Of a stretch of DNA of 20,000 nucleotides, positions 3,311 to 20,000 are shown piece after piece. Origin of the DNA: an uncultured virus (IMG/VR IMGVR_UViG_3300037515_000764) (taxonomy: Duplodnaviria > Heunggongvirae > Uroviricota > Caudoviricetes); IMG/VR virus record IMGVR_UViG_3300037515_000764, one strand, 5' to 3'. The stretch's first letter is position 1, and the number at the start of each line of letters is the position of its first letter. Under the pieces are notes generated by a model. It saw nothing but the letters and a program-made list of their open reading frames with translations. It did not search any database and had not been told where the DNA came from. The translations under genes and the position numbers were made by a program.

Positions 3311-3315
3311 ATTTT

Positions 3316-3323
3316 ACCTCCTT
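3316..3323 (-). promoter_or_regulatory. Shine-Dalgarno site of tape measure gene
   Basis: AAGGAGGT 5 nt upstream of the ATG at 3310. Confidence 0.85.
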
Positions 3324-3325
3324 CC

Positions 3326-4235: not shown

Positions 4236-4827
4236 CTACGCTATCAAGCGCCCCTGCTAAAATCTTGCTAAAAAGCTGAGAAGCTAATAACTGTATTTCA
4301 TTTCCAAATTGGGGGTTGTCATTGGTTAGTGTTTCAATAACTGCTAATTTGCGTTCAAGTGGGTGGAATCTATTTAAACTTGGAAGAGGGGGTAAAAGAT
4401 TTTCAATTCTTCGCGAATTAGCCTGTTTTCTATCCCAAAAATTATCAGGGATTTTAACTTCTATTTCTTCGTTTGTAAATTCTATACTTTTTGATTTAAA
4501 ATTAGAATTTAAAAGTGCAAGAATAAAAGCTTGACCTCGTGTTTCGCGTTCAAATCTTTCGTGTTCGTTTCTAACAATAGTTATTAAACCATCGACAAGT
4601 TCTTCTGTAGCTGCGGGGGATTCATCGGCTAAACCGTTCTCTTTGGCATAGGCCGCTAAAAGTATAACGTCTCGGTGTGCAGCATTAATGTTTGAGGTGA
4701 TATCTCTTGAGGAAAGTAGTGCATCTGAAAAATCTGTGAATAATTTTCCAGTCTTTTCATTCAGAGATAAGATTAATGACCCTCCTCCATCAAGTACCAA
4801 TTCCTTTTTGATATTTATGGAAGCCAT
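4213..4827 (-). CDS. Putative tail assembly chaperone (G-like)
   Basis: 204 aa ORF with SD AAGGAGA, directly downstream of the tail tube gene; assignment is by synteny. Confidence 0.5.
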   Translation of the reverse strand: MASINIKKELVLDGGGSLILSLNEKTGKLFTDFSDALLSSRDITSNINAAHRDVILLAAYAKENGLADESPAATEELVDGLITIVRNEHERFERETRGQAFILALLNSNFKSKSIEFTNEEIEVKIPDNFWDRKQANSRRIENLLPPLPSLNRFHPLERKLAVIETLTNDNPQFGNEIQLLASQLFSKILAGALDSVDDNNFQS

Positions 4828-4850
4828 TAAAAATTTCTCCTTGTTAGTTT

Positions 4851-4870
4851 GCCCCGCTTTTACACGGGGC
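4851..4870 (-). other. GC-rich RNA hairpin after tail tube gene (terminator-like, but no U-tract)
   Basis: GCCCCG-TGTAAAAG-CGGGGC inverted repeat in an AT-rich intergenic gap; followed by AAACTAAC rather than poly-U. Confidence 0.6.
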
Positions 4871-4887
4871 TATTAGTTAATTAATTA

Positions 4888-6354
4888 TTAAGCGTTGGGG
4901 AATCTTGGTGAAGCAATAACGAGTTCGCCTGCATCAGTACCGGCAACAATCCAAAAACGTTGCAAAGAGGTATCAATGCCTTGAATGTCTGTGTAATCAC
5001 CTGCAATAGTCGTTGAACCATCACGGGCAACAACTTCTTTCCATTGTCGCGAAGAACAAGGGTCGGAACGGTAAATAGAACTACCAATAGCGGCATAAAC
5101 TTCATAAGCATCACCTGCAAGGTAAGTATCGCCAGAAGCAGGCAACAGACGGTCACTCCAAATTGAGAAATCATCTGATTCAGTATAGAAGTTAACACCA
5201 GCAACAGCAACCCAATTATCGCGGCTATGAATGTCAGTAATAGCTTGAGCAGCAGCAGTTGAAACACTAGCAGTAATATCAATAATAACTTGGATATTGC
5301 TGTTGTAAGTTAAAACTACACCCGCACCGCCATCAACACCACCAATTAAGAAGATACTTTGGTCTTCAAAATATTCGATAGTATAGAAATCAGCAGTAGC
5401 TGCAACAGTATTTGATACAGCAGTGAAAGAAGCAAGCGTATTACTTTGAGCAATATTACCGTCAGAACCAACAGCAACATAAGTACCACCTGCAAAAGCC
5501 ACATCAAAGAAAGCTTCAACGGGAGCATTGCCAGCGGTTGAAAGGTCGGTAAATGTAGTACCAGCATCAGCCGAAACAGCAATACCACCAGTTGTAGCGG
5601 TAGCGGGGTCTACATCATCAGCATAAGTAATAACAATGTTGTTACCATTAACTAAAATATCAGTAACGATTGACAAAGCAGGCAATGTTGGTGACAAATC
5701 TGTACCGCTAACGAAACGGTCAGTCGTAATTTCTAAGTTAAGAGCTTCCCCGCCATAATAGCCGTCCAAGAATCGAACGGAAGTACAACCAACACATTCT
5801 TCTTCTGCCCAAGCAACTGCATGAACGGCATCTTCATTAGTTTGAGCTAAAACGAAATCTGTGTAGTAGTAAGTTAAATCTTGGCCTGTTGCCGAAAGGG
5901 TCGTTTGGGCTGTTAATGGAGTACCACCACCGTCAGCACCTTCAACAAAAGTACCTTGACGTTGCAAAGAACCTACCGTAAAATCGGGAATTCTAACAAA
6001 GTGATTATATTCGGTACGTTGCGGACACAGATAACAAAGAATCAAATCGCGTCTACATTCGCTTTCGGATAAAACCTGAATTTCATTCCAAAGCGTATAA
6101 CCTTGCGGAATTGTTAATGTCCAGTCAACCTTTTGCACTCTTGCGCCACGCAATGTAATTGTAACAGGTACGAGTTGACCGCCTCTAAATTCGACGCAAT
6201 TAACTTCGATTGGGTCTGATAACGTATAATCTGCATCAGAAAGGGTATAACAGCGCAAATCAATTAAGTCGTCATATGAATGTTCAGCACTCATTAACAT
6301 ATGATAACTAAAAGTGTGAAGCGCCGGCCCCCATAATTTTTGAGTTTTTGCCAT
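4888..6354 (-). CDS. Putative major tail (tube) protein with C-terminal beta-propeller
   Basis: SD AGGAGG and a position before the chaperone pair and tape measure. N-terminal ~165 aa is beta-rich; C-terminal part has an Asp-box (SADAGTTF) and a blade motif (YVAVGSDGNIAQS). Confidence 0.6.
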   Translation of the reverse strand: MAKTQKLWGPALHTFSYHMLMSAEHSYDDLIDLRCYTLSDADYTLSDPIEVNCVEFRGGQLVPVTITLRGARVQKVDWTLTIPQGYTLWNEIQVLSESECRRDLILCYLCPQRTEYNHFVRIPDFTVGSLQRQGTFVEGADGGGTPLTAQTTLSATGQDLTYYYTDFVLAQTNEDAVHAVAWAEEECVGCTSVRFLDGYYGGEALNLEITTDRFVSGTDLSPTLPALSIVTDILVNGNNIVITYADDVDPATATTGGIAVSADAGTTFTDLSTAGNAPVEAFFDVAFAGGTYVAVGSDGNIAQSNTLASFTAVSNTVAATADFYTIEYFEDQSIFLIGGVDGGAGVVLTYNSNIQVIIDITASVSTAAAQAITDIHSRDNWVAVAGVNFYTESDDFSIWSDRLLPASGDTYLAGDAYEVYAAIGSSIYRSDPCSSRQWKEVVARDGSTTIAGDYTDIQGIDTSLQRFWIVAGTDAGELVIASPRFPNA

Positions 6355-6367
6355 TTCTTAAATCCTC

Positions 6368-6706
6368 CTAAAATTTAATATAAGTTGCTAATTTGCTTAA
6401 AACTCTTTGCGAGATATTTTTTACTAGGCGCGGATTATCTTCTAAATCTTCTAACGAAAAGAAACCGTTTTCCCAATAAATATTATTTAAAAGACCTTTA
6501 TCGAAACCAGCGAAGAAATCTGATACCTTGGGTAGCAACTTATATTCTTCTGAATAAAAATCTCTTTTTCCTTTTGGAGCTAATCTCAAATCTCCATTAT
6601 ATTCTACAACATCAGTTGTTTTATAGTTAGCTAAAAAAGAAGCTCTAACATCATGTTTCTTTTTTTCTTTAACTACTTCTTTTAACTCTTTTACTTCTTC
6701 TTCCAT
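6368..6706 (-). CDS. Hypothetical phage protein (neck/tail region)
   Basis: 112 aa ORF coupled by a TAATG overlap to the upstream gene, with GGAGG upstream. Confidence 0.75.
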   Translation of the reverse strand: MEEEVKELKEVVKEKKKHDVRASFLANYKTTDVVEYNGDLRLAPKGKRDFYSEEYKLLPKVSDFFAGFDKGLLNNIYWENGFFSLEDLEDNPRLVKNISQRVLSKLATYIKF

Positions 6707-7944
6707 TAGAAAGCGTAGCCTCCATCTATAATTCTTAAATTACGTATCGCATCCCAAGCCATAATAGCGCCTCTTCTAAAACCCCATCTATATGTGTTTT
6801 GCATATTGGAGGTCATAAAAACAGCCTCTTCGTTATTAACCATGCCAATATTTGGTTGTCTATAAAAGTGTAGCGGACTACATTTACAGGAACAATTTTC
6901 ACATGGTAATAAGGAAGCAGCCAACCAAGAAATTATTTGAGCACATCTAAAATTCATTCTACCGTTAGATTGTCTTGGACAACCTGCAATATAATTAATT
7001 GTTAATGTTTTATTTGTACAACATGAGCAGGTTCCACAACCACAACAATCAAATGTGTCTGTTTCTTCATCTAATGTCGCAATTCTGGTCTCAATTAAAC
7101 TTAATTTTTTGTTAATCGTATTTGCGCAAAAAGATTCTTGGGAAACAGTACAGCAGCCATTATCACATTGATATGAACCTGTATTAGTCGTATTTAAAGT
7201 TTTAGTGTAAATAGTAAAACGAGTTTCATAAAAATCTAAATCTGTTAGCTCTAAAGCACTCGGATTAGGTATTGTAACTTCATCTGCTTTTACAATTAAA
7301 AAAGATTTTCCACATATATTAATTTGGGTATCATCATTTATAAGTGTTGCCGTTATCGGCTTAACTTCCCATTCGAGACATTCATCATTCTGACAATTAT
7401 TTTGAACATCAGGGTGGTAAACTAAAACTATTTCATTAGGTAAAGTTCCACTTGGCAAATCGCCTACATCAATTACTAAATTAAATTCAGAAAGCGGGTC
7501 TATATCAACTGGCAATAAATTAACTTCATTTATTACTCTAGTATAAGTATAAGTTCCTAAACTCTGAATATATTTTCCGCCTAAAGCCACTCTATGAGCG
7601 CAGTTGTGACTATAATATTGTTTACTACTATAGCCACTTCCACGTAAGTAATCTCTAAGAATAAATTCTTCTGTAATTTCTCTTGGAGCGGGATAATAGC
7701 CCGTCTCTTCATAGAACATATGTTCTGCCTGATGAATGGCCCGTTGAATATCGTCTCTAGCTAACTCTTGATTTTGCCAAAGATATTCGTAAAAAACTTC
7801 ATCACATTCGTTATCATCAGAAAAGATTGGATTGGTATCTGAAGGGTCAACAGAACTTAATTGATGTAGTTGAAAAGGGTTTAAACCGATTATATGCGCA
7901 AATTCAGTTAATGTTAATAAATTGTCACAATAATGGTTAAGCAT
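6706..7944 (-). CDS. Cys-rich putative head-tail connector/adaptor
   Basis: N-terminal LTLTEFAHIIG ... IQRAIHQAEHMFYEETGY and later TINYIAG resemble gp6/gp15-type adaptors; lies after the major capsid gene; 22 Cys by hand count. Confidence 0.6.
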   Translation of the reverse strand: MLNHYCDNLLTLTEFAHIIGLNPFQLHQLSSVDPSDTNPIFSDDNECDEVFYEYLWQNQELARDDIQRAIHQAEHMFYEETGYYPAPREITEEFILRDYLRGSGYSSKQYYSHNCAHRVALGGKYIQSLGTYTYTRVINEVNLLPVDIDPLSEFNLVIDVGDLPSGTLPNEIVLVYHPDVQNNCQNDECLEWEVKPITATLINDDTQINICGKSFLIVKADEVTIPNPSALELTDLDFYETRFTIYTKTLNTTNTGSYQCDNGCCTVSQESFCANTINKKLSLIETRIATLDEETDTFDCCGCGTCSCCTNKTLTINYIAGCPRQSNGRMNFRCAQIISWLAASLLPCENCSCKCSPLHFYRQPNIGMVNNEEAVFMTSNMQNTYRWGFRRGAIMAWDAIRNLRIIDGGYAF

Positions 7945-8258
7945 TAATCTAAAGCTTTCTCTTTAAGTATTAGCGAAAGGCCAGCAATAGATGTGATAAA
8001 AAGAATTTTTTCGAAGATATTTTCACCAAGATAAAAGCCAAAGGGAATCGAAACCCAAACTGAATTGCAATAAAAACAGTTAAAGATTTCAGAAAATCCT
8101 TTGTATTTAACGACTGGTAAACCTGCTGGTGTTTCTGCACCTACTAAAATTCTAATCTTTTGAGACAGGTGTAAAAAACCATCTTCATAAACTAATAAGT
8201 AAGAAATTCTAAAAACAGCAAACGAACTAAGTATGACGTATAAGAAGTTCTCTAGCAT
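7944..8258 (-). CDS. DUF1360-like membrane protein with CxxC
   Basis: AVFRISYLLVYEDG ... EIFNCFYCNSVWVS matches the DUF1360 pattern; several hydrophobic segments. Confidence 0.75.
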   Translation of the reverse strand: MLENFLYVILSSFAVFRISYLLVYEDGFLHLSQKIRILVGAETPAGLPVVKYKGFSEIFNCFYCNSVWVSIPFGFYLGENIFEKILFITSIAGLSLILKEKALD

Positions 8259-8718
8259 TTTCTATTAACCTTTCTGCAGATTTTTTTGAAAGAAAATCAA
8301 AATTCTCTGCAAGAAATTCAACACCAACTTTAATAACATCTGTTAAACTTTTGATATTTTTTTCCGAAAGTGCAACGGCTCTAGTCTCTCCAATGCCATC
8401 TAGTTTAGAAAGTTCGTCTAAGATTTCACTAATATCTTTTTCATTTTCGAATTCTAATTGCTTTTCGGCGATTCTGAAAAAATAATAACGTTCATAATCT
8501 TCGTAAGAAACTTGTAATGTATCGCCTCGCGAAAAATATCCGTAAGCATGATTATTAGAACCAACTACTTGAACTCTACGGGTGTGATTCGGTTGGAAAA
8601 CTACAGTGACAGTTTCTTTATCTTCTAAACTAGTTAATATCTGTTCCTCTTTCTCTTTAGCTTTTCGCGCAGCTTCTTCTCTCATTTTTCTTTTTTGAGC
8701 ACATTTATTGCAACCCAT
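8227..8718 (-). CDS. Helix-hairpin-helix domain protein with N-terminal CxxC
   Basis: LSKLDGIGETRAVAL is an HhH motif; starts MGCNKC; immediately follows the major capsid gene. Confidence 0.7.
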   Translation of the reverse strand: MGCNKCAQKRKMREEAARKAKEKEEQILTSLEDKETVTVVFQPNHTRRVQVVGSNNHAYGYFSRGDTLQVSYEDYERYYFFRIAEKQLEFENEKDISEILDELSKLDGIGETRAVALSEKNIKSLTDVIKVGVEFLAENFDFLSKKSAERLIENARELLIRHT

Positions 8719-8720
8719 TT

Positions 8721-10103
8721 TTAGTCGCCGTACTCGTAACTAAATTGCTTGTCGGGAACCCATTCGTAATTAATAAATTTGGCAGCCAAGAACGGGGTAA
8801 GCAAGAGAACGCGCCATACGATACGACCACACGCCTTCAGACACCACTTAACCAACTCAATAGCCCAGATGTATTTACCATCATCAGACCAAAGCAAATC
8901 AGCAACGCGACTACCCAAACCAGCTAATTGTTCTGGCAATTGTGACCAGTCCAAATATTCCAAGTAAGTAGCAGGTGCTCCGCCGTCATAAGTGATTGGC
9001 AAAACAACAATTGGTGAAGAAACACTACCATTTGTAACATTGTCATCGGCGATTTCAAGTCCACGAATCGTTGGGTCTGCTGAGTTCTTAGACAAGGGAA
9101 TACCTGTATCTAAAACAACGTCATAGCGATTACCATTTAAGAACAAGAATTTATTTTGAAGCATTTGGTTGCGTTCGCGTCGAAGCTCATTAGCGTCAAA
9201 AAAGATTTGTTGTGACATAGCGCTTTCAGAAGAAGGCTCTTCACAGGTGAGTTCTAAACAGCACGACCATTGCTTAGTTAATTCCCACCAAGTATAGGGG
9301 TGCATGAAAATCTTCCAGAAATTGGGCGCACAAGCTTCACCACGAATAGTCCATTCCATTTCGGCGATAAATAATTCGCGAATCAAATCACAATCGAGCG
9401 GTGCATAGGAGCCTTCGGTATCACCATCAATTACTTGACTATCAACGTCAGGGCATAAGGTGATGCCATCAGTATCAGTATAACCAGTTGTTACCCAATT
9501 GAGCAAACCGAGTGGTTCTTTGTAGCCAGTACCAACATTGTTAGATGAAGTACCCGTCCAAATAGTTCTCGAAAGTTTTCTATGAAATAGCTTAGCAACA
9601 CCAACCATTTCAGAACGAATAACGGTGTTAAGCATATTATTTTGGTCAACAGGAGTTTGTAATGCGCCCATATCGCCAATTACACGGCAACGCAAACGCA
9701 AGTCTCTTGTATCACCGCGACAGGCATTCATAATAATTCGACCAGCTTCAACAGTATTCATGCACCGTTGCAAGTCACCGAATTCAGCCGTAATTTTACA
9801 AGTTTCCCACAAACCAGTTGGTGCATCTTCACACACAGTTTCTGGTTCAAGCGCTTCGGAATCTTCATTGAAACCAGTTAAAAGACCGAAGATGGGATTT
9901 TCATTTACTGTTGCAAAAGCTTCAATTTCTGCTAAAATGCCAAAAGGGTTAACAAGTGCTGAAACAATGTCACGCTCAATACAAGCATCAGAAAACAAGC
10001 CTGTTGAACCATGAAATAAAGTTGCTTCATTTTCAGACGCTACAGAAATTGTAACATCCTTATTCGCATCTTGCCCAAGCTGTAAAACAATCTTATCTTT
10101 CAT
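8721..10103 (-). CDS. Major capsid protein (probable HK97 fold)
   Basis: 460 aa, follows protease and scaffold. Contains LFHRKLSRTIWTGTSSNN...EPLGLL (spine helix followed by a G...P-x-GLL pattern) and IFMHPYTWWEL. Confidence 0.8.
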   Translation of the reverse strand: MKDKIVLQLGQDANKDVTISVASENEATLFHGSTGLFSDACIERDIVSALVNPFGILAEIEAFATVNENPIFGLLTGFNEDSEALEPETVCEDAPTGLWETCKITAEFGDLQRCMNTVEAGRIIMNACRGDTRDLRLRCRVIGDMGALQTPVDQNNMLNTVIRSEMVGVAKLFHRKLSRTIWTGTSSNNVGTGYKEPLGLLNWVTTGYTDTDGITLCPDVDSQVIDGDTEGSYAPLDCDLIRELFIAEMEWTIRGEACAPNFWKIFMHPYTWWELTKQWSCCLELTCEEPSSESAMSQQIFFDANELRRERNQMLQNKFLFLNGNRYDVVLDTGIPLSKNSADPTIRGLEIADDNVTNGSVSSPIVVLPITYDGGAPATYLEYLDWSQLPEQLAGLGSRVADLLWSDDGKYIWAIELVKWCLKACGRIVWRVLLLTPFLAAKFINYEWVPDKQFSYEYGD

Positions 10104-10106
10104 TAT

Positions 10107-10634
10107 CTATTTCCCTCCAAACAGAAGTTCTGTCATGTTTTCCGGTTGTTCATTGTTATTTACATTAGCTTCTGAAGCAGTTTTAAGTTCTTCTTCGCTA
10201 ATGGTAAAAAGCCCTTGCGCCCAAGACTTCTTTGAATCTTCAGGGGTTTGACCTAATTCCTTCAAAAGGTTGGCAACTTCGCCTTCAAGTTTTACAACTC
10301 GACTAGATAATTCTTTAACTAAAGTATTGGCAGCTTTAAACTGTTCAATAACCGTGTTAGCAAATTCATCATCATAAACGGGCGTTACTTCTTTAACCTC
10401 TTCTTCTTCCTCTTCAACAACTTCTTCTTCGGGCGTTAAAAGACCGACGATTTGTTTAAGAGTTTCTAAAACTTCATTTGATTCTTCGCTCGATTTTTGC
10501 GGAAGACCTAATGATTGCCCTGTTACAGAAATCGTTGTAAGGCTATCCGTAAATCCTTTAATATCTTCCGGCGTATAACCGGCCTCTAATAGAGCGTTAG
10601 CTTGCTCTACAGAAATGTTTTTTACTTCACTCAT
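10107..10634 (-). CDS. Putative capsid scaffolding protein
   Basis: Very acidic (EEEVVEEEEEEV) with a coiled-coil segment; lies between protease and capsid; SD AAGGAG. Confidence 0.6.
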   Translation of the reverse strand: MSEVKNISVEQANALLEAGYTPEDIKGFTDSLTTISVTGQSLGLPQKSSEESNEVLETLKQIVGLLTPEEEVVEEEEEEVKEVTPVYDDEFANTVIEQFKAANTLVKELSSRVVKLEGEVANLLKELGQTPEDSKKSWAQGLFTISEEELKTASEANVNNNEQPENMTELLFGGK

Positions 10635-11207
10635 TTAATTCTCCTTTAAATTAACAAATGTCAGAGTGTTTGCGGCTCTTTCTAATGGTAGAATAGAAAT
10701 CTCCCATGAGATATAAGATTTAATAATATTTTTTTCTTTTCTTTGATATATCATCCCATGCGAAACCCCTAATGGTCTTGGATGTTGGAATAAAAATTTA
10801 ACAAAACTTTTAGAATCTTCGTTAATAATGCCAGAAGCAAAAGCGACATTGTTTTGTTCGTCGAAACCTAAAATGTCAGTAGTGCCGATTAAATCAATGT
10901 TCTTATTGTGGTGGAAAAGCAGAACAGGGTAGGGTACAATACCAGTATTAACGGCTTTGGCGAATTTGCTATGTGATTCGGCCGACAAGAATTCACCGTC
11001 TCTATCTAAAAAATTGTTAGAGAAAGCTAAGAATAGTCGCAAACTTCCGTCTGACATTTCTTTAAACATGGCGATATTTTCAGTAGCAGATATGGCGGCT
11101 ATTTGTCTAGCTGCACCTGCTCTAGTCATATGACAACCGAGACTTTCGTTAGAATTATCCTTAACTACACAGTATTCGTTTTCTCTTTTAATAATTTCAT
11201 ACGGCAT
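10635..11207 (-). CDS. Prohead maturation protease, HK97 family
   Basis: DRDGE, LLFHHN (catalytic His), GVSHG (catalytic Ser) and EISIL...AAN motifs; short N-terminal MPY...YCV...GCH module. Confidence 0.8.
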   Translation of the reverse strand: MPYEIIKRENEYCVVKDNSNESLGCHMTRAGAARQIAAISATENIAMFKEMSDGSLRLFLAFSNNFLDRDGEFLSAESHSKFAKAVNTGIVPYPVLLFHHNKNIDLIGTTDILGFDEQNNVAFASGIINEDSKSFVKFLFQHPRPLGVSHGMIYQRKEKNIIKSYISWEISILPLERAANTLTFVNLKEN

Positions 11208-11604
11208 TTTTTCCCTCTTTACACGATACTACCTTATCTAATTTTTCTTCGACGACGTCCAATCTTTTATAAACACTTCCTTCAAAAACATCTAATCTTC
11301 CATAAATATTTCCTATACTATCTTTTAAATCAGTAACAGCTTCAACCAAGCTTTTCGTAGCAGTTGTTAATTCTTTTTGGTCTGCTACTATTTGTTGACG
11401 TATTAAAGAATCGCTTATTTTTTCATTTGAAAGAATAACAAAAACTTCTTTGAACGCTTCGATTGAATTTTGCGCCGTTTCTTCTTTTTCTATTTGGACT
11501 ACTGTTCTTAAGCGCATCAATAGAAACATCCCTATTAGTATGTTTGGAAAAAACGCGGTAATACCTAGCAACTCTCCTGTATTTTCTGGCAGGAATTCAA
11601 ACAC
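11197..11604 (-). CDS. Single-TM coiled-coil membrane protein, holin-like
   Basis: GTG start with SD AAAGGAG; N-terminal hydrophobic helix (LLGITAFFPNILIGMFLLM) followed by a heptad coiled coil. Confidence 0.5.
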   Translation of the reverse strand: MFEFLPENTGELLGITAFFPNILIGMFLLMRLRTVVQIEKEETAQNSIEAFKEVFVILSNEKISDSLIRQQIVADQKELTTATKSLVEAVTDLKDSIGNIYGRLDVFEGSVYKRLDVVEEKLDKVVSCKEGKNAV

Positions 11605-11622
11605 ATTTCTCTCTCCTTTCTT

Positions 11623-11904
11623 TTAATCAACTATACCATTAATTTCTTTATATAAATCTTCGAGTGTTTCTGAATCGCAATTATTAAGTGGACATTCTTC
11701 GTAAAAATCACCAGCACATTCAATTTTAGTTCCGTCGTTAAAGACAATATATTCTAGTTGGATGACAGGTTTTCCGAAACGCATTGAAATAATTATTTCT
11801 ATATCTTCAATTTTTAAACCTGTTAGTTTGTTTAGGCTCAAAACCCATTTGCTAATTTCAACGTCTTTTAGTCTCATTGTTCTAAATCTACTAGCCACAT
11901 GCAA
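11623..11904 (-). CDS. Hypothetical protein
   Basis: 93 aa ORF filling the operon gap; may start at the second ATG (MRLKD), which overlaps the upstream TGA. Confidence 0.6.
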   Translation of the reverse strand: MHVASRFRTMRLKDVEISKWVLSLNKLTGLKIEDIEIIISMRFGKPVIQLEYIVFNDGTKIECAGDFYEECPLNNCDSETLEDLYKEINGIVD

Positions 11905-12362
11905 GCACCGCCGTTCGGATTTGATAAAATATGATAATCATAAGCCGTACCATCGGAGCGCGGAAATTGTTCTAAACTGGTTTCGGTTACAAAATATTTA
12001 TCTTGGTATTCTGTAAATGTCCAGCGCTCATAAGTTCCGTCATAGCCAACAAAATAATAGATTTCAGTTTCGCCTAAGTAATCGAAATTAATACCAGAAA
12101 AACCGTATTCTTCTCCTAAGCGTTCTAAAACCCAGTAATTAGGTATATTACGAGGGGCATAACCTAACCATTTTACTTGTTCGCCTGATAGATTATAGTA
12201 GAAATCAACATCTAAATCTAATGGATAGTAACTTTTAGTTCCATAAATAAATTCTGGTTTTTCCATGCAGTGGTTTAGATATTTCGAATTGTCTTTGGCT
12301 AAAATTGTTTGAGAAGATACAGTTATGAACAAAATAATAAATAAAATTAACTTTTTGTTCAT
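11874..12362 (-). CDS. Secreted/exported hypothetical protein
   Basis: Sec-type signal peptide MNKKLILFIILFITVSSQTILA/K; Tyr-rich mature part. Confidence 0.7.
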   Translation of the reverse strand: MNKKLILFIILFITVSSQTILAKDNSKYLNHCMEKPEFIYGTKSYYPLDLDVDFYYNLSGEQVKWLGYAPRNIPNYWVLERLGEEYGFSGINFDYLGETEIYYFVGYDGTYERWTFTEYQDKYFVTETSLEQFPRSDGTAYDYHILSNPNGGACMWLVDLEQ

Positions 12363-12803
12363 TTAAGTTTCGCTTTCATCCGGTATTATTCGCCACGGAT
12401 TCAATCCAAACACATTTACCCGCTCATCATTGATTGTGGCTAACACATCCCCTCGCGTAAAATTAGCGATTGGAGGTGTCAACACACCGGAATTTGTCAG
12501 CACTAGCATATTGTCACTTTGTCGCACCGCGAAATATCGGCAACCATTACCCAGCGTCTCGATAAACGCTTCTAAGGCACTTCGCATGGCAGGCTTCACA
12601 GGTGATGACAGTCCAAAGCCTTGCGCGGGTAAGCTACCCGACGCGCTCAGCTTGACGACTGAATTGAACATTTTAATTTCGTCGCTAGCGAGTTCACCAC
12701 TGCCATTATCGGCGAATATGTCTGCGAACGTTTGCCGATTTTGCGCCGTGTTGAGGTTTTCGAGTACCACCATGTATAAAATGTGTTTCCAGTTACTTGT
12801 CAT
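12363..12803 (-). CDS. Hypothetical protein, partner of LamG-like gene
   Basis: Track ORF is 12363..12821; the more likely start is ATG 12803, which forms an ATGA overlap with the upstream stop and has GGGGGA upstream. Elevated GC. Confidence 0.7.
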   Translation of the reverse strand: MTSNWKHILYMVVLENLNTAQNRQTFADIFADNGSGELASDEIKMFNSVVKLSASGSLPAQGFGLSSPVKPAMRSALEAFIETLGNGCRYFAVRQSDNMLVLTNSGVLTPPIANFTRGDVLATINDERVNVFGLNPWRIIPDESET

Positions 12804-13585
12804 GCTAGGCTTATCCCCCACAGGCTTGATAGATAGGCTTCCATTTGTTGGCGCTCACTGGTTGAGTGTTCAGCGTCGTAAATGTGGACTTCGCCGATGA
12901 GTCCTGTATAAGCCTCACTCGGACTTGCACCATCATTACCGATAGCGCAAATACCACCAATTGCCTTACTCGTATAAGTATCGCTACCTAAAAAACTTCC
13001 ATTCCTATATACCGTGCCTGTTCCACTGCCGTGTACAAAACTTAAAATCTGTATGACATTTGTCGCGGCTCCAACATTTTTCCAAACAGAATCAAAAAAA
13101 CCAACTTGTCCATTCGTACTCGCTAGATGAGTAAAAATAAGTCTGCCTGCTTGTGAATCAAATAAAAATTCAAATGTGCCTGTTGCGCTATCTGGTTCAA
13201 TCACAAAATACGCCGTCACTGGACCCGCAATTGGCGAGCTAATTCCCGTCACAGCCCAAAAATCATCCGACCCATCAAACTGTGCCGCCCAATGCCCATT
13301 AATGCCATTATCAGACGTTTTCAGCAGAGGCTTAGCGGCGGTTGTCGTTTGGCTGGCATCCACCGCGCCTGTCAGTGGCGTAACACCGCCTATCACGTCT
13401 CCATCATTCGCGGCTAATGTCGTCTTAGCGTTGTCTTGAAACAAGTTTTCGTGGTAGTTTTCGTGGATACTCCACCCCGCCACTTGACCAGAAAGGACTG
13501 GCAAAACGGGTGTTGAAGTTGTTTTCGATACCGTATCGCCTAAATTTAACGGAAATTCGCCTAACCTCTTAATATTAAATCTCAT
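12800..13585 (-). CDS. LamG/concanavalin-like jelly-roll virion protein (putative adhesin/fibre)
   Basis: LFQD...DGDVIGG...SQTTTAAKP...AQFDGSDD and YTGLIGEVHIYD..HSTSERQQMEAYL..LWG are characteristic of phage LamG-like proteins. Confidence 0.75.
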   Translation of the reverse strand: MRFNIKRLGEFPLNLGDTVSKTTSTPVLPVLSGQVAGWSIHENYHENLFQDNAKTTLAANDGDVIGGVTPLTGAVDASQTTTAAKPLLKTSDNGINGHWAAQFDGSDDFWAVTGISSPIAGPVTAYFVIEPDSATGTFEFLFDSQAGRLIFTHLASTNGQVGFFDSVWKNVGAATNVIQILSFVHGSGTGTVYRNGSFLGSDTYTSKAIGGICAIGNDGASPSEAYTGLIGEVHIYDAEHSTSERQQMEAYLSSLWGISLA

Positions 13586-13905
13586 TATGCACCAGTAACA
13601 AATTGGTATTCAAGCGTAGCCGAAGCAACCTCTTCAATAAATTTGAGAACAGTATCTTCACCAATTGGCAAAAGAATAGGCGGTTGGTCTACTTGCAATT
13701 GAAAACCGCTAGAGGAAGTTGGGTCTGTTCCATCTATTGTATATCTGATATTTTCATCAATAGCTTGAACTAAGACACCTGTCCATTCGTAAAATACATC
13801 AGGTAGAGTCAAAGTAACAACCACATTTAAAGATGAATTTGAAACATGCGAACCTTGTGGATTTAAATTTTTAATACTTACTGTTTTCGATTGAGGTATT
13901 GGCAT
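13585..13905 (-). CDS. Small beta-rich protein, putative capsid decoration/fibre base
   Basis: 106 aa with VLVQA..ENIRYTIDGTDPTSSSGFQL; coupled by a TAATG overlap to the LamG-like gene. Confidence 0.5.
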   Translation of the reverse strand: MPIPQSKTVSIKNLNPQGSHVSNSSLNVVVTLTLPDVFYEWTGVLVQAIDENIRYTIDGTDPTSSSGFQLQVDQPPILLPIGEDTVLKFIEEVASATLEYQFVTGA

Positions 13906-13906
13906 C

Positions 13907-14947
13907 TTAACTCCTTAAAAGTCTAAAATAATCTCTATCCCATTCAGGGAATAAAGAAATCATTTGGTTGAAGTCTGAGTTTTCAGGGGTAGGTCTAAAT
14001 TTAGCAATCGCGTAGGCATCATGAAAACCTTTGTCAAAATCAGAAACAGTATCAACATACCAATAAGAAGAAGCCGTAACGGTATTTCCAACCATTTGAC
14101 GCAAAATATAACCATCCATTTTTTCTGCTCGATTTGAACCTTCTAAATGAACACCATATTCGCCTATATATCTAGCTTTACCATAAAGGTTTGCAACCTG
14201 TAAATCAATTGCGCTTTCTTCTTCAAAAGCAAATTTATTATCAGGCAAACCAGCTTCCCAGTAGTTATGAACATTGGCTAAGTGCAAATAAGGCAATCTA
14301 CCAAAAACATCGTGTGCTACTTGTTCAACGGTAAAATATTCCGGCTTAAAATGTCGCGTATTTATCCATCCGACTGTTATGGGTGTTTTACCTTGACTGG
14401 CATCATAAGCTACTTTAGTCAAATACTCCCAAGTTTTCATAAATGCTTCGTAATTTTCTCGATTTAAATCAGCATGAACAATTGCAGGTTCATTCATTAA
14501 ATCTAAAACAACGTGATTATAATCTTTTAGAGCGAAAGCAACTTCTTTTAAGCGCGTTTCATATTCGCCACGCCAAGCTTCATTTCTATACCAGTCAATG
14601 TTTAAATGATTTAAATAGCTGGCATTATGATAGCTATTATTAACATCACAATGAAACCCAGACCGAATTGAATCATCAAAAACTACAACTAATTGAACAC
14701 CAATAGAGGCTGTAAAATCTGCCCATTGTCGCAATTTAGACATTATCTTAGGAAATTGTTTGCCGTCTTTATGAAGATACATTCTTACATGTTTTATTTC
14801 ATAAATTGGATAATCCCACAAAACAGCCATAATATCATAATCGTCAAAGTGCGGACTATCTTCAGACCACATACCTTCTCTTAAATTTGCCCCGTTCCCC
14901 GAAAATCCATCCAAAACCCACTGGTCGAAATACTGTTTTAATTGCAT
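13907..14947 (-). CDS. Clan GH-A (GH5-like) TIM-barrel glycoside hydrolase
   Basis: GAN (strand 1), HVRMY, LDLMNEP (acid/base Glu), NVHNY and YIGEYG (nucleophile Glu) occur in the expected order. Confidence 0.75.
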   Translation of the reverse strand: MQLKQYFDQWVLDGFSGNGANLREGMWSEDSPHFDDYDIMAVLWDYPIYEIKHVRMYLHKDGKQFPKIMSKLRQWADFTASIGVQLVVVFDDSIRSGFHCDVNNSYHNASYLNHLNIDWYRNEAWRGEYETRLKEVAFALKDYNHVVLDLMNEPAIVHADLNRENYEAFMKTWEYLTKVAYDASQGKTPITVGWINTRHFKPEYFTVEQVAHDVFGRLPYLHLANVHNYWEAGLPDNKFAFEEESAIDLQVANLYGKARYIGEYGVHLEGSNRAEKMDGYILRQMVGNTVTASSYWYVDTVSDFDKGFHDAYAIAKFRPTPENSDFNQMISLFPEWDRDYFRLLRS

Positions 14948-14949
14948 AT

Positions 14950-15019
14950 CACCAGTTAGTTGAATAGTTCCATCATTAACGGGTGGGGCTACAGTTTTTT
15001 TAGATAAACTATATCACCC
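14950..15019 (-). promoter_or_regulatory. Candidate -1 programmed ribosomal frameshift cassette
   Basis: SD-like GGGTGAT (15019-15013), 11 nt spacer, heptamer A AAA AAA (15001-14995), 9 nt spacer, imperfect hairpin (14985-14950); the -1 frame is open into the GH ORF. Confidence 0.55.
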
Positions 15020-15348
15020 GCTGTAGTTCTTTCGGCAACAAAACCTTGTTCTTCTGGTATATAACGCCAAACATATTCGTCATTTAAAACAGTATTTAAT
15101 CCGAGATAATCGAGCATAGCTTCATCAACTACAACTGAATAAACACGTTTAACAGCACCAAAACTCCAAACTTTAGGCGGATTAAATAGTTGCGATAAAT
15201 TAGGAAATGGTCGAATGTTCATATCAGAACGAACAGTTTTCATTTCTATTTCTTCGTATTCTGTAGGTGGAACTTGTTGACCACTTTCAACAGAATGTCT
15301 GTAAATTTCTACACCGTCTACATACAAAACGGTTTCGTGTAATGGCAT
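14989..15348 (-). CDS. SH3b-like (putative cell-surface binding) domain protein
   Basis: SD AAAGGAG; MNIRPFP ... VWRYI...GFVAE fits the bacterial SH3 pattern (N-x-R-x-x-P ... W ... G-W/F-V). Confidence 0.55.
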   Translation of the reverse strand: MPLHETVLYVDGVEIYRHSVESGQQVPPTEYEEIEMKTVRSDMNIRPFPNLSQLFNPPKVWSFGAVKRVYSVVVDEAMLDYLGLNTVLNDEYVWRYIPEEQGFVAERTTAGDIVYLKKL

Positions 15349-15361
15349 TTAATCTCCTTTT

Positions 15362-15811
15362 TTATTTTTGGATATAACGACTCAAGCTGAACTGTGCTGA
15401 AGACAAAGTAATCGTTTGAGCGGGTGCATCAGAAACGGCATATAATTCAACAGTATCATCTGCTTCCAATGTAAGAATGCCGCTAATCGAAACATGAACT
15501 TCATCAGGTGTAGCATTAAATGTCGCATCGGCTTGATAATTTTGGTCATGTGTCGCACCATTAACATAAACGTAAAAATTCCAAACACTACTTGCCGTAT
15601 CAGTCGTTGCGCTAAAATCAACTTCTACGAAATAATCGCCACGCAGAGCAACTGTAATATCTGATGTTGCCAATGCCGGAACTACGTTTTCTGTAAAAGG
15701 CATCAACGTATCAAATTGGTCTATCAATGTTTCAGTTGTTCCAATCGCTTGCCCTGTAGAATTGCTATCAATGGCTAAACCACCGTACTCTTGGTTAACT
15801 CTAATTGACAT
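15362..15811 (-). CDS. C1q/TNF/BclA-C-like jelly-roll protein, putative virion decoration
   Basis: ITVALRGDYFVEVDFS ... VSISGILTLEADDTVELYA ... FSLSR is typical of C1q-like domains; SD AGAGGAG. Confidence 0.65.
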   Translation of the reverse strand: MSIRVNQEYGGLAIDSNSTGQAIGTTETLIDQFDTLMPFTENVVPALATSDITVALRGDYFVEVDFSATTDTASSVWNFYVYVNGATHDQNYQADATFNATPDEVHVSISGILTLEADDTVELYAVSDAPAQTITLSSAQFSLSRYIQK

Positions 15812-15852: not shown

Positions 15853-17481
15853 TTATTCTTCTTGCAAAGCCGTATCTTCATTATTTAAACGCATTGCGGC
15901 TTCGGATGGTCTATCTAATCTAATATTAATATCTTCCTCTTCCTCCTCTAGTTCCTCACTATATTCCTTTAAAAGTTTTTCAATTAAGAAAATAGCCGCT
16001 CTATATTTAATTCGTATTTCAGTTCTCGAATTAACAAAACCATTAAAAGCTTCAGCTAATTTCTCTTCTAAAATCGCAGTCATTTCTTCTGAATCGTTTT
16101 TGCTAAAAGAAAGTGGCTTTATAGAACCAAAATCAAATAAGGTTCTGAATGGTTCTTCATCAACAAATAATAAAGCCTCAATTGGCGTGCCATCTTCTAA
16201 CCGTCCATCAGAAAGTTCATCTTCAATAAAATCAGATTTTGAGAGTTCATCTTCCTCATACATTTGCATACGTGCTGTTCGTTTTGAAATTGAGCCGGAC
16301 TGAATATCTCTAGCTCTTTGCACAGAACGCCTTTCAGAGATTTCAGCACTTGCTCTATCACTTGCACCGTCTTCGATATTAAACTTAAGCGAGTAGTCTT
16401 TCGGCAAAAATTTGTCTGAAATTTGGCTTTCTAAAGATTCAATTATTAGACCGAAAGAACGTTGGCGCGAATTAAAGTGATTCAATAAGGCATCTGCCTT
16501 GGTAGAACCAGAACTTGTTAGGGCAATATTTAGTTCGCTTTTTGCGTCAAGGCCAAAGGCCAATGCAACTAAATAAATTGTTAGATTGTATAATTCAGTC
16601 GTATCGAAGTTTTCAAAACCAGTAGACATTTTTATTAAGTCTAATTTAGCACCAGAATTGCCACCCCCAATAACAAGAGTTTTAGAAAGAGTTCCAACAT
16701 CCTTAGTAAAATCAGCGATTGCAATTGCATCTAAAATCTCCTGCGTCGTTATACTAGAGCCAAATAGAATTTGTTTAGGTGGTTTAACACCCAAAGTTTC
16801 CATTTGATAATTAACGATGCCTTGAAGAACTCGAATAACATCTAAAGCTCTAGAAACAGAGCAAAAACCAGTTCCGAACTTATGGAAATCTGATTGAGGA
16901 AAATCAACAAAGCTAATTAAACGACTTTTATGAACTCTATAGTTTTTTCCAGTAATTGGACTTTGATAGATGACAGGAAAATTGTCGTTATTAGTTCTAA
17001 AACAGTATAAAGAATCTAAATGCAATAAACCAAACGGTTGACCGACCAAAGGTTTATCGGCTGAAAACGGTTTACCCATTACGAGTAAAAACCCGCCGTT
17101 ATCAGTTGTCAATGTATCTAATAAGAATTTAGAAAGTTCTGGCTTAAATGGTTTTGTACCACTGTTTGTTAATAGCTTAATACGAAAATTTTTTGCATTT
17201 TCTATTTGTGTTAGAACGTTTCTTTTTTCTGGTAAAACTCTAATATCCATCGACATAATTTTACTAATTAATGTAAAAGCAACAGTCGCTAAAATATCAG
17301 ATTTTCTTAGACATTCTCTTAGATAGGTGTCTCTTGCTTTTGAAAAATATGCGGGAACTTCCGAATTCTTAGTTCCAAACATTGTTGCAAAATTGTTATA
17401 AGCTCGAAAAGACATAGCCTGATAAGCGGGGTCTTCCGACATGGGAAAAGGTGTAATTTTATTTAAATCTGAATTTGTCAT
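15853..17481 (-). CDS. Portal protein
   Basis: 542 aa directly after terL; SD AAAGGAGGT; portal-like helical motifs (FLLDTLTTDNGGFL, VALAFGL) and an acidic tail. Confidence 0.85.
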   Translation of the reverse strand: MTNSDLNKITPFPMSEDPAYQAMSFRAYNNFATMFGTKNSEVPAYFSKARDTYLRECLRKSDILATVAFTLISKIMSMDIRVLPEKRNVLTQIENAKNFRIKLLTNSGTKPFKPELSKFLLDTLTTDNGGFLLVMGKPFSADKPLVGQPFGLLHLDSLYCFRTNNDNFPVIYQSPITGKNYRVHKSRLISFVDFPQSDFHKFGTGFCSVSRALDVIRVLQGIVNYQMETLGVKPPKQILFGSSITTQEILDAIAIADFTKDVGTLSKTLVIGGGNSGAKLDLIKMSTGFENFDTTELYNLTIYLVALAFGLDAKSELNIALTSSGSTKADALLNHFNSRQRSFGLIIESLESQISDKFLPKDYSLKFNIEDGASDRASAEISERRSVQRARDIQSGSISKRTARMQMYEEDELSKSDFIEDELSDGRLEDGTPIEALLFVDEEPFRTLFDFGSIKPLSFSKNDSEEMTAILEEKLAEAFNGFVNSRTEIRIKYRAAIFLIEKLLKEYSEELEEEEEDINIRLDRPSEAAMRLNNEDTALQEE

Positions 17482-17493
17482 TGCACCTCCTTT

Positions 17494-18753
17494 CTAAAAG
17501 TTTGTTAAATAGTCTGCTAAGTTTACTGAAGATAGTCCCATAAATTTATCAATAGCTTCAACATAATAGCGCAATGTATTCATAGAGTGGTCATCATCGG
17601 GCGAAGGAATTTCAACTGTTTTTCTATTTTTCTTAACTTTAATCCAAACAAAGCTTCCAAATTCTTCAAAAATAGATGTTGGTTTATGCTTTTTGCGAAG
17701 TTCTTTATCGACATATTGCTGACAATTTTCAAAGAAGAATATTTCGTCTCTTTCAAAACGCGCATTAACTTTTTCAATTCCGCCGTCTATATCTTTTTTG
17801 GCTAGAATAGTCGGATAGCCGTTTTGTGCCAAATGCGCTCTTACTTGAGCATCATGGTCACAAATAAATTCGCGTATCGGATAATCTTCGCAAATATCAT
17901 CTAAGACTTCTACTAGACCATCGGGCGATAATTGACTTTGATAATGTTCTTTAATTAGATAAGCTATATCTTCTTCGTTTTTTCCCCAAAGATGTACAAC
18001 TGTAGGAGCCTTGTAACCAATATCTATAACAACGCGGTATTCCCACCCCTTTTGCTGTTCGCGGGGAATTGGTTCGACAACATGTTTAGCAAAATCGAAT
18101 GGATGAACGGAACCAGTATCAGAAACCCACATACCGTCATATAAACGTTGCTTTTTAGTACCCGAAAGACTTTTTAGGTCGTTTAAGTAGCTTTCCGGCA
18201 AAAACGTATTAACGTCAGGCAAAGGCTTATAAAGTTTGCCGATTTGTTTAAGAATTGTTTCTTGATAAATCCAATGTGAAGAAGAGCGAGGGTTGCAATT
18301 TAATATTATTTGTCTAAAATCTGCTGCTGTACCGCGCATACCCGCTTTGATATGTTCATATTGAGAAAAGTCAAATTCCGTCGCTTCTTCCATTAAAGCC
18401 AAATCAATAGAAAGAGAATATAATTTTTCGTAGGAAGCAGGGTCATTAAAACCTGAATAAAATAAACGAGAACCATTTGTATATTTAAAAGCGGATTCAA
18501 ATTTGTTATGTTTTACAAAAGGATTATCAAAACCAACAAATTCTTCTAAAACCGGTAAATTTGAATTCAGCAGAGAACTTCTTGTTTTACGAACTAATAC
18601 GCAAAAGGCATTAGGATTCTTAAGACAGAACAAATGTAATTTTAAAAGACCCGCCCAAGATTTTCCAGTACCCTTACCGGAAGCAGCTATAATTACTGGA
18701 CTTTTATTAGATATATAATCTTTCTGCCACTCTAGGAGTTCAATCTCTTTCAT
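17494..18753 (-). CDS. terL: Terminase large subunit, PBSX/SPP1-like
   Basis: Walker A SGKGTGKS, Walker B LALMEEA, motif III LNCNP, RNase H motifs VIDIG, ICD and DHSMNTLRY. Start moved from 18786 to ATG 18753 because of SD AAAGGAG. Confidence 0.92.
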   Translation of the reverse strand: MKEIELLEWQKDYISNKSPVIIAASGKGTGKSWAGLLKLHLFCLKNPNAFCVLVRKTRSSLLNSNLPVLEEFVGFDNPFVKHNKFESAFKYTNGSRLFYSGFNDPASYEKLYSLSIDLALMEEATEFDFSQYEHIKAGMRGTAADFRQIILNCNPRSSSHWIYQETILKQIGKLYKPLPDVNTFLPESYLNDLKSLSGTKKQRLYDGMWVSDTGSVHPFDFAKHVVEPIPREQQKGWEYRVVIDIGYKAPTVVHLWGKNEEDIAYLIKEHYQSQLSPDGLVEVLDDICEDYPIREFICDHDAQVRAHLAQNGYPTILAKKDIDGGIEKVNARFERDEIFFFENCQQYVDKELRKKHKPTSIFEEFGSFVWIKVKKNRKTVEIPSPDDDHSMNTLRYYVEAIDKFMGLSSVNLADYLTNF

Positions 18754-18769
18754 TATTCTCCTTTCAGGC

Positions 18770-18797
18770 AACAAAAAAGCTACCAATTAAGGTAGCT
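18770..18797 (-). terminator. Intrinsic terminator upstream of terL
   Basis: Minus strand AGCTACC-TTAATT-GGTAGCT followed by TTTTTGTT. Confidence 0.7.
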
Positions 18798-18837
18798 AAT
18801 AATTTAACGACAACATCGTTTCTTTTTAGGTTTTCGT

Positions 18838-19062
18838 CTAATTGCCAAGTTGTTTTGTCATTTCTTCTATTTGTATTTCAGTAATCTGTTTCATAACTTG
18901 GATGAAACTTTCGACTTCTTTTTTATCTTCTAAGCGAGAAAAATTGGTTTTCTGTTCTTCTTGTTCTAAAATATTCATTTCGTCGTCATAAAAGGTGGCT
19001 ATTACGTACCAATAACCATCTTTAAAGACGGCACTAAAATCCATCTTAGTTGCGTTATCCAT
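18838..19062 (-). CDS. Small acidic hypothetical protein
   Basis: 74 aa, SD GGAGG, overlaps the upstream stop. Confidence 0.75.
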   Translation of the reverse strand: MDNATKMDFSAVFKDGYWYVIATFYDDEMNILEQEEQKTNFSRLEDKKEVESFIQVMKQITEIQIEEMTKQLGN

Positions 19063-19537
19063 TGTTAATAGCCTCCGTATAATTTATTGGCAAATATGGA
19101 TTATCATCAGCAGTAAAATCTGTTATAGAAATATCTTCGTTGATAATAACAGAAATTTCAACATCTTTTTCGCCGAGAGCAGATAAGTCTGTAAGATTAA
19201 ATGTGTCTAAGTCGGAAAATATATAATCATAACGAATTGCTGAAGGTATACTATAACCGGTTTGCATTTTAATAACCGAACCATTTGCAAATACAAATTG
19301 GCTTGTACTCTTGTAGAAACTGTTTTCTAAAGTTATTAAAAATCTTATTATATTGAAGTGATAATTGGAATGTAGATTTCTAACCAAAACGAGAACTCTT
19401 GAATTTTTATTTTCTTCGGCAAATTTAACAGCCTTCATTAAACCTGCGACAGTTTTACCAGAAGATACGTCACCAGCAATAAGATTTACTCTTTTTGTCT
19501 GATTTAGAAATTCCTGTTGCTTTTTAGTCGGTATCAA
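19055..19537 (-). CDS. Stand-alone degenerate terminase large subunit ATPase domain
   Basis: Likely TTG start at 19537 with SD AAGGAG (19549-19544), 160 aa. PTKKQQEFL, Walker A GDVSSGKT, VLVLVR, FANGSVI, YDYIFSDL and terminal DNPYLP..Y are collinear with the terL N-terminal half. Confidence 0.75.
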   Translation of the reverse strand: MIPTKKQQEFLNQTKRVNLIAGDVSSGKTVAGLMKAVKFAEENKNSRVLVLVRNLHSNYHFNIIRFLITLENSFYKSTSQFVFANGSVIKMQTGYSIPSAIRYDYIFSDLDTFNLTDLSALGEKDVEISVIINEDISITDFTADDNPYLPINYTEAINNG

Positions 19538-20000
19538 TGATTTCTCCTTCAACAGTATTGCCATCATCCAACCAAAGATTTTCAACGTCTAGGTTTTTGA
19601 AGGCCAATGTAATATCAAGTTTTCTTTGTTCGGTAACTGTTTTGAAATCCCCGACCTCATGCCCTATTTGCTTTAATGTATCCATATAAACTTTAGAATT
19701 TACTAGACGACCATTTCTGTCTGTTGATAAATGCAAACCTTTATTTTCTATTTCATCTACGTAGCGCATTAGTTTAGCAGCGCGTTTTTCTTTTTCCCAC
19801 AAATCACCGTCTTCAATCTCAATTTCTTTTTCAGTGATTTTCTTTTTTATTTCATCAGAGTATTTTTTTCTGTAGTAGTTAACTAGAGAACGTTCAACTT
19901 GAAAGCCCTGTTTATCGCAAATTTCAACACACTCAGTATTTGAATAACCAGAGACTAAAAGTTCAATTAGATACTCTTTTTCAAAGTCCTCTAATTTCAT
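19524..20000 (-). CDS. Putative terminase small subunit (DUF2280-like)
   Basis: N-terminal HTH-like segment (GYSNTECVEIC...VERSLVNYYRK) and LKQIGHEVGD resembling DUF2280; lies upstream of terL. The ATG is at the window edge, so the start is unverified. Confidence 0.65.
   Translation of the reverse strand: MKLEDFEKEYLIELLVSGYSNTECVEICDKQGFQVERSLVNYYRKKYSDEIKKKITEKEIEIEDGDLWEKEKRAAKLMRYVDEIENKGLHLSTDRNGRLVNSKVYMDTLKQIGHEVGDFKTVTEQRKLDITLAFKNLDVENLWLDDGNTVEGEIIDTD

Follow-up and report, generated by a model that had tools for sequence, protein, structure and literature searches.

A probable TerL-derived pseudo-ATPase encoded between terS and terL of an uncultivated sediment phage

Introduction

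Why should a phage that encodes a complete large terminase (TerL) carry, between this gene and that for its putative small terminase (TerS), a further gene for a much shorter protein resembling the TerL ATPase domain? The question arises from IMG/VR record IMGVR_UViG_3300037515_000764, an uncultivated member of the Caudoviricetes from a sediment sample, of which a stretch of 20,000 nucleotides (nt) was analysed as a whole (hereafter “the window”). The gene concerned, referred to as mini-TerL, is located as follows:

19055..19537, minus strand: mini-TerL coding sequence, 160 amino acids (aa) from a TTG start at 19537, defined by open reading frame (ORF) calling and homology

The original prediction had taken mini-TerL for a stand-alone, catalytically dead paralogue of the TerL ATPase. 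The results presented here suggest that it is probably a functional, TerL-derived pseudo-ATPase. That it serves as a terminase modulator, i.e., as a TerL mimic within the phage’s own terminase system, is the role favored here and is advanced more tentatively.

Homology to the TerL ATPase domain

Judged by profile comparison, mini-TerL is remotely homologous to the TerL ATPase domain from end to end. BLASTP against the neighboring TerL yields 27% identity over 128 aa (E 3e-9), and hhalign matches all 160 columns of the mini-TerL family profile to residues 3-195 of a five-member TerL alignment (97.6%, E 4.7e-12). The best PHROG matches are three TerL families, headed by phrog_979 (E 2e-6), and language-model (ESM) features score 0.96 to clusters labelled TerL-domain proteins. 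Mini-TerL reaches no Pfam cut-off: no terminase family (Terminase_3 / Terminase_6N) appears at E <= 1, and the best match, DEAD, attains 15.5 bits against a cut-off of 26. A sequence search of the PDB returned nothing significant (E 0.51), and among GenBank phages no match was found by blastn of 17400-20000 or by tblastn of mini-TerL (50,697 phage records for the latter).

Structure prediction points in the same direction. The AlphaFold2 (AF2) model built from an 87-row alignment has a predicted local distance difference test (pLDDT) score of 78.1 and a predicted template modeling (pTM) score of 0.74, and all of its top PDB and BFVD matches are TerL ATPase domains (D6E, T4 gp17, Sf6, HK97 and P74-26; TM 0.61-0.71 overall and 0.61-0.67 when scaled to the query length); among the matches listed, the top 22 PDB rows (ranks 1-30) are TerL ATPase domains with TMq 0.55-0.67. 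TerL ATPase domains make up 82 of the 87 rows of this alignment; the model leans on TerL sequences and is therefore consistent with the profile result, not independent of it.

Conserved and lost motifs

The ATPase motifs were compared by reading the alignment rows of mini-TerL, its variants, the TerLs and P0013, a short relative introduced below, together with a column summary. Three stretches mark the beginning, the middle and the end of the domain:

19451..19474, minus strand: Walker A P-loop GDVSSGKT, residues 22-29; P0013 and every full-length variant retain its G, G, K and T
19205..19225, minus strand: degenerate Walker B strand YIFSDLD, residues 105-111; invariant in all 10 variants
19079..19105, minus strand: DNPYLPINY, residues 145-153, end of the ATPase domain; VNTFLP..Y in TerL

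The likeness to TerL had been proposed motif by motif, and each listed pair is indeed present and aligned in BLASTP and in the alignment rows. Besides the P-loop, mini-TerL retains the Q motif (TKKQQEFL vs. LEWQKDYI in TerL), the NGS motif (FANGS vs. YTNGS) and the conserved Arg after the second strand (R53). In Walker B, one acidic residue is kept as D109, and the position of the catalytic Glu is occupied by L110, S-D-L being aligned with M-E-E of TerL (IFSDL vs. LMEEA), which bears out the proposed lack of this residue. The NP of motif III had been described as absent; this is correct for the Pro, which is gone, but not for the Asn, which is kept as N133 (IIN vs. NCNP). Also gone are the HW helix of the lid and, from the stretch separating Walker B from motif III, the conserved Arg of an RxRG-type motif. 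Altogether, mini-TerL has about 45 residues fewer than TerL, spread over several in-frame gaps. With this set of motifs, mini-TerL would be expected to bind nucleotide without hydrolyzing it.

The reading frame closes seven codons after the Tyr of DNP..Y, approximately where the nuclease linker begins in TerL. No nuclease remnant was detected, as no frame of 18754-19110 contains a TerL-like match beyond the tail of mini-TerL itself. The ORF therefore ends at the ATPase boundary and without a nuclease, as had been predicted.

Ancestry and distribution

A hidden Markov model (HMM) of the mini-TerL family does not score best against the resident TerL: L057 (8.5e-9), L041 (5.8e-8) and L052 (6.5e-7), all from another TerL branch, come ahead of the neighbor (3.5e-6). 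A quick maximum-likelihood tree was built from 86 rows (L036, which contained X, was dropped, and a careful search is unfinished). In it, the mini-TerL variants and P0013 form one group outside all 81 TerLs (Shimodaira-Hasegawa-like approximate likelihood ratio test, SH-aLRT, 95), and the resident TerL is nested in a clade of 28 rows. Because the HMM prefers other TerLs and the group lies outside the TerLs in the tree, mini-TerL is not regarded as a recent tandem copy of the resident terL, in agreement with the original prediction.

A full HMMER pass over 1.84 billion protein representatives returned five matches at E <= 1e-3. One of them, P0002, is a 90%-identical variant of mini-TerL. The best non-self match is P0013, a protein of 184 aa with 30% identity, which aligns end to end over the same span; no full-length TerL ranks above it. 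P0013 shares KxAEEN and RYD with mini-TerL and has an intact P-loop (GNMRSGKS), carries Asn and Phe at the Walker B positions with no acidic residue there or adjacent, is missing the Arg motif and lid helix that mini-TerL is missing too, and stops a short way past DNP; its best PHROG is a TerL family (E 1.4e-3). The nearest relative of mini-TerL is thus another short, Walker-B-less protein and not a full-length TerL, and this is the main argument for long-term retention of the truncated form.

The other matches were rejected as family members. P0011 and P0012 are repeat proteins whose matches fall in many stretches, and P0014 (150 aa) is a TerL N-terminus joined to a C-terminal piece of YchF. 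In the latter, a TerL fragment reaching from the Q motif to Walker B is followed by the last ~36 residues of the YchF GTPase C-terminal domain (Pfam E 1.7e-9), which could reflect a prophage-chromosome junction or an assembly chimera. A search with the mini-TerL profile at near lengths added no further member, and no related locus was found for mini-TerL in viral contigs or for the family profile and P0013 in genome and viral contigs. Searching metagenome contigs with P0002 recovered only two unrelated full-length TerLs of 492 aa.

The arrangement itself appears to be rare. More than one TerL-like ORF occurs in only two of 83 sources (82 loci related by their TerL, plus the window), namely in the window and in L017. 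In L017:251-1638, terL is present as two overlapping ORFs of 306 and 187 aa covering profile positions 8-273 and 270-410, due to a frameshift or a sequencing error. If this split terL is counted as one gene, a second TerL-like ORF is absent from all 82 related loci, and the order terS-miniTerL-terL does not recur in them. Applied to 6,135 ORFs, the mini-TerL HMM detects 22 full-length TerL ORFs and mini-TerL itself, and nothing else. The ATPase domain of the resident TerL has matches in 437 GenBank phage records, at one place in each, in a search that a copy as diverged as mini-TerL could escape. All 14 runs listed with the stretch are metagenomes (sediment 10, soil 4), with no RNA run among them, and only one, which may be the sample of origin, covers most of it. 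Full-text keyword searching, which was not exhaustive, found no description of a terS-miniTerL-terL arrangement or of a terminase decoy.

Organization of the locus

Every gene in the last 4 kb of the window lies on the minus strand, in the order terS, mini-TerL, a 74-aa ORF (ORF74), terL and a gene in the portal position:

19524..20000, minus strand: putative terS, 158 aa, complete, in the terS position
19543..19549, minus strand: Shine-Dalgarno sequence AAGGAGA of mini-TerL, strong, 5 nt 5' of the TTG and inside the terS coding sequence, read from the sequence
19055..19585, minus strand: open frame containing mini-TerL, from the ORF list
18838..19062, minus strand: ORF74, 74 aa, orphan, its start overlapping the mini-TerL stop
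18768..18797, minus strand: terminator-like hairpin with a 7-bp stem, 4 G-C pairs and a T run, just 5' of the terL ribosome-binding site
17494..18753, minus strand: terL, 419 aa, with complete ATPase and nuclease
15853..17481, minus strand: portal-position gene, 542 aa, without a Pfam or PHROG match; homologues follow terL in 11 related loci

The protein in the terS position is considered complete because an identical sequence of 158 aa is on record as a called protein. Mini-TerL starts upstream of the terS stop codon (19526-19524), which falls within its ORF, and the sequence, the ORF list and other gene callers agree with the proposal of an intact 160-aa ORF that has its own Shine-Dalgarno sequence and overlaps the end of terS. 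Alternative ATG starts at 19564 and 19567 would give products of 169 or 170 aa; gene callers on other contigs chose either the same TTG (160 aa) or these upstream ATGs (169 / 170 aa). The only terS homologue that was found is in L018, where terS overlaps the start of terL directly, and ORFs upstream of terL do likewise in other relatives. Mini-TerL hence occupies the spot, the overlap with the terS stop, at which terL itself starts in relatives.

A frameshift fusion of TerS and mini-TerL was considered and set aside: mini-TerL lies in the +1 frame relative to terS, no slippery site is seen, and the gene has a Shine-Dalgarno sequence and start of its own. In the most divergent terS variant, P0036 on a 9,921-bp contig, the stop codon is lost and 13 more codons extend across the mini-TerL start, giving 171 aa instead of 158.

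At its other end, the stop codon of mini-TerL overlaps the ATG of ORF74 (ATGGATAA), and such an overlap suggests translational coupling from mini-TerL to ORF74. ORF74 matches nothing in Pfam or PHROG, is without a homologue in the 82 related loci and scores below 0.8 in the atlas. Its conservation nevertheless amounts to 92-99%, and it is invariably a companion of mini-TerL, the two occurring together on five other contigs (on variant contigs, here and below, proteins were placed via length match). ORF74 was also considered as a remnant of TerL and rejected, since hhalign of ORF74 against TerL gives 0.2% and no downstream frame is TerL-like.

The hairpin lies within the 84 bp that separate the stop of ORF74 from the ATG of terL, mid-way in what is expected to be a single late operon, and might represent the border of a module or a point of attenuation. 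It is no evidence on its own, because a scan of the 2.6-kb stretch finds one such site where shuffles lead one to expect 1.6.

Functional gene or relic

The strongest competitor of a functional pseudo-ATPase is a relic of terL replacement. According to this explanation, mini-TerL would be the 5' remainder of a terL that once followed terS, stranded by an incoming terL-portal module together with ORF74 and the hairpin, and now drifting. The position of the gene at the place where terL starts in relatives would be well explained in this way, as would its lack of a phylogenetic relationship to the resident TerL, the hairpin and fresh ribosome-binding site in front of terL, and its absence from all 82 related loci and from the 437 GenBank phages.

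The variants of mini-TerL, i.e., nine members of a 90% cluster plus P0002 (nine of full length and one 70-aa partial), speak for maintenance. All ten are uninterrupted and end at the same residue, with 87.5-100% identity, and neither the degenerate Walker B stretch nor most of the C-terminal half varies among them. The locus is likewise stable: terS, mini-TerL, ORF74, terL and the portal-position gene occur together on the most divergent contig (9,921 bp), and subsets of them on contigs of 10,372, 8,692, 2,880, 2,629 and 2,581 bp. Two other samples yielded contigs that run colinear with the window at 18005-20000 (80 differences) and 18794-20000 (46 differences) and are gap-free across terS, mini-TerL and ORF74, one of them extending into terL. 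Across the four runs compared, indels occur in terL only and none in mini-TerL, and among the differences listed (40 of 474) none lies inside mini-TerL. In one contig of run X2, a single base is inserted in terL after 17803 and another is deleted at 17809, a compensating pair that changes two terL codons.

On a rough estimate, the pattern of substitution also fits a gene under constraint. The 46 differences of the 2,581-nt contig include nine amino-acid changes in mini-TerL and two in terS, from which a rough omega (dN/dS) of ~0.2 for mini-TerL and ~0.04 for terS is obtained at a dS of ~0.12, calculated from the total differences per contig and length-matched proteins on the assumption that silent and intergenic sites change at an even rate. 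By the same approximation, the 2,532-nt contig gives a mini-TerL omega of 0.21-0.24. For omega to equal 1, mini-TerL would have to hold only ~2.4 of the ~33-35 silent or intergenic changes despite containing ~37% of the silent sites. Moreover, its codon usage is fully adapted to the phage and fits that of the structural genes in its own frame only (cosine 0.915 vs. 0.65-0.66 in the other two frames), and its GC content at third codon positions (GC3) of 0.217 is like that of terL and portal. Neither eroded homologues nor a dN/dS near 1, which the original prediction had named as signs of a relic, were thus observed. A decaying fragment would further have to account for deletions relative to TerL that are all in frame, for an ORF that finishes cleanly at the border of the domain and is coupled to the next start downstream, for the missing nuclease remnant in any frame downstream, and for the same truncated form in P0013 at 30% identity. 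Taken together, a relic appears unlikely.

Several points nevertheless weigh against a maintained and functional pseudo-ATPase, among them the approximations behind the dN/dS values named above. On the same contigs, the identity of mini-TerL is 87.5-96%, compared with 98-99% for terS, 95.5-98.3% for TerL and 95-98.7% for portal; the protein evolves 2-8 times faster than its neighbors, as a relic would, and is about as conserved as ORF74. Relaxed constraint or conflict would account for this faster evolution just as an accessory role would. The family is tiny, since two of the five HMMER matches are repeat artefacts and one is a chimera, and P0013 is known as a protein alone, from a 1,099-bp contig. 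Its grouping with mini-TerL unites two long branches, a meeting flagged by the tree program, in a quick tree that was left unfinished. The AF2 model made from the 5-row family alignment alone is unusable (pLDDT 42.7), and the terminator-like hairpin splits the mini-TerL cassette from terL.

Possible roles of mini-TerL

For a functional pseudo-ATPase, a role in the phage’s own terminase system is favored on two grounds: the start of the gene falls exactly at the place where relatives start their terL, and both lineages, those of mini-TerL and P0013, keep the P-loop. Under this tentative model, mini-TerL would be translated together with TerS and would bind nucleotide in a non-hydrolyzing manner. 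It might then occupy a TerL-binding surface, either on TerS or on a neighboring TerL subunit of the motor ring, and thereby tune packaging initiation or motor assembly instead of powering translocation. A complex prediction of TerS, ORF74 and mini-TerL (three chains, where two are advised) scored 0.00, gave no verdict and is used neither way.

A second possibility, judged somewhat less probable than the relic, is an anti-defense mimic, the decoy of the original prediction. As such, mini-TerL may bind sensors of the TerL fold (Avs1-3, Upx) without productive oligomerization and so shield the real terminase. The TerL ATPase domain alone is reported to be recognized by, and to activate, Avs2 and Upx, and Upx is described as still sensing catalytic mutants of TerL in most cases (PMC13601566). 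Small TerL-ATPase-like phage proteins exist, and an anti-defense origin is one possibility that the authors raise for them (PMC13601566). The rapid evolution of mini-TerL would suit an arms race, and its presumed co-expression with the terminase would place such a decoy where it is needed. However, the known analogues Ksap1, Ksap2 and vs.8 are described as activating Avs2 and not as blocking it (PMC11564622, PMC13601566), and both lineages conserve an intact P-loop, which a pure decoy would not need.

Mini-TerL could, thirdly, be a putative weapon between mobile elements, which would soak up or poison the hijacking TerS of a satellite or the TerL ring of a co-infecting phage while sparing its own. 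Satellites redirect the TerL of their helper via a TerS of their own. Mini-TerL keeps the core that forms the TerL surface, with motor function made impossible, and diverges quickly, both of which would suit such a conflict. The tight coupling to its own terS, in contrast, argues for action on the phage’s own terminase and leaves this explanation improbable.

Least probable of all is a small NTPase that is still active by means of a displaced catalytic carboxylate, e.g., D111 of SDLD: Walker A, D109 and the second Asp two residues on are invariant in the variants, but P0013 has no acidic residue at or beside the Walker B positions, which makes an active enzyme very unlikely, and the conserved Arg motif and the lid are absent in both lineages. 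We know of no TerL with a catalytic residue displaced in this way.

Relation to known proteins

The closest comparison is the TerL ATPase domain itself (Terminase_3 / Terminase_6N; D6E 5OE8, T4 gp17 2O0H, Sf6 gp2 4IFE, HK97 6Z6D, P74-26 4ZNI), with which mini-TerL shares the predicted fold and homology over the whole ORF. That domain comprises ~205-215 aa, compared with 160 aa in mini-TerL, which is without a nuclease and has a complete TerL encoded 300 bp downstream.

[quoted passage not shown] Like mini-TerL, vs.8 as described there is small, derived from or similar to the TerL ATPase domain, additional to a complete TerL and confined to a narrow phage group (PMC13601566). Unlike mini-TerL, it has 219 aa and a location remote from the terminase genes, with vs.7 and denV on either side, and it is described as keeping Walker B (PMC13601566), whereas mini-TerL has no catalytic Glu. 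Aligned by hhalign, vs.8 and mini-TerL reach a probability of 0.5% over 42 columns around the P-loop only, and mini-TerL is placed outside the vs.8 family because profile similarity does not extend beyond the P-loop. Ksap2 (Bas60_220), a small protein of phage Bas60, is reported to resemble the TerL ATPase domain of D6E weakly in structure and to activate KpAvs2, and no homology of its sequence to terminases was found in that study (PMC11564622). Compared by description, Ksap2 is a defense trigger without terminase homology in its sequence (PMC11564622), in contrast to the clear TerL profile homology of mini-TerL.

Short proteins with a TerL ATPase fold and no nuclease can also be pieces of a split terL. 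This applies to “terminase large subunit” entries of 235-244 aa from Pectobacterium phage CBB and Agrobacterium phage Atu_ph07 in BFVD, which are like mini-TerL in these respects and which we take to be parts of one interrupted terL. For mini-TerL this explanation was rejected, as a complete and uninterrupted TerL of 419 aa with both domains is encoded at 17494-18753. Further short proteins of TerL ATPase fold among the BFVD matches of the mini-TerL model include entries of 175 and 195 aa as well as an uncharacterized 185-aa protein encoded by Yersinia phage fHe-Yen9-04, and some of these may be stand-alone TerL mimics rather than gene pieces.

Non-catalytic paralogous subunits are familiar among ASCE/AAA+ proteins, where the clamp-loader delta-prime subunit and the Rad51 paralogues keep the P-loop fold, have lost hydrolysis residues and partner active paralogues. 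These belong to different families, and their relation to mini-TerL is one of functional analogy only.

Mini-TerL is an independent case of vs.8/Ksap2-like proteins, new in its TerL descent, its lost catalytic residues and its place in the terS-terL unit. Accounts of these proteins leave open why some phages carry them (PMC11564622, PMC13601566), and to this question mini-TerL adds a further example. Its descent from TerL, the loss of hydrolysis residues with retention of the P-loop and the placement between terS and terL point to a role that is tied to the terminase itself. As a small and easily expressed protein, mini-TerL lends itself to probing such a role. On a more speculative and rather unlikely view, phages might repeatedly and independently have made stand-alone mimics of the TerL ATPase (vs.8, Ksap2, mini-TerL), and mini-TerL could be a sponge that protects the real terminase from sensors of the Avs or Upx type or from satellite TerS, while forming neither a working motor nor an immune complex. 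Even as a slowly decaying relic, mini-TerL would still record a terL replacement event. The reach of these considerations is that of a very small family from sediment and soil metagenomes only.

The remainder of the window

The structural module on the minus strand at 1-15811 is very divergent, with a PHROG match at E <= 1e-3 for only 5 of 21 large ORFs. The five matches are to a tape measure protein (2-3310), a virion structural protein (12800-13585), weakly to a minor-tail protein (15362-15811), and to two families of unknown function.

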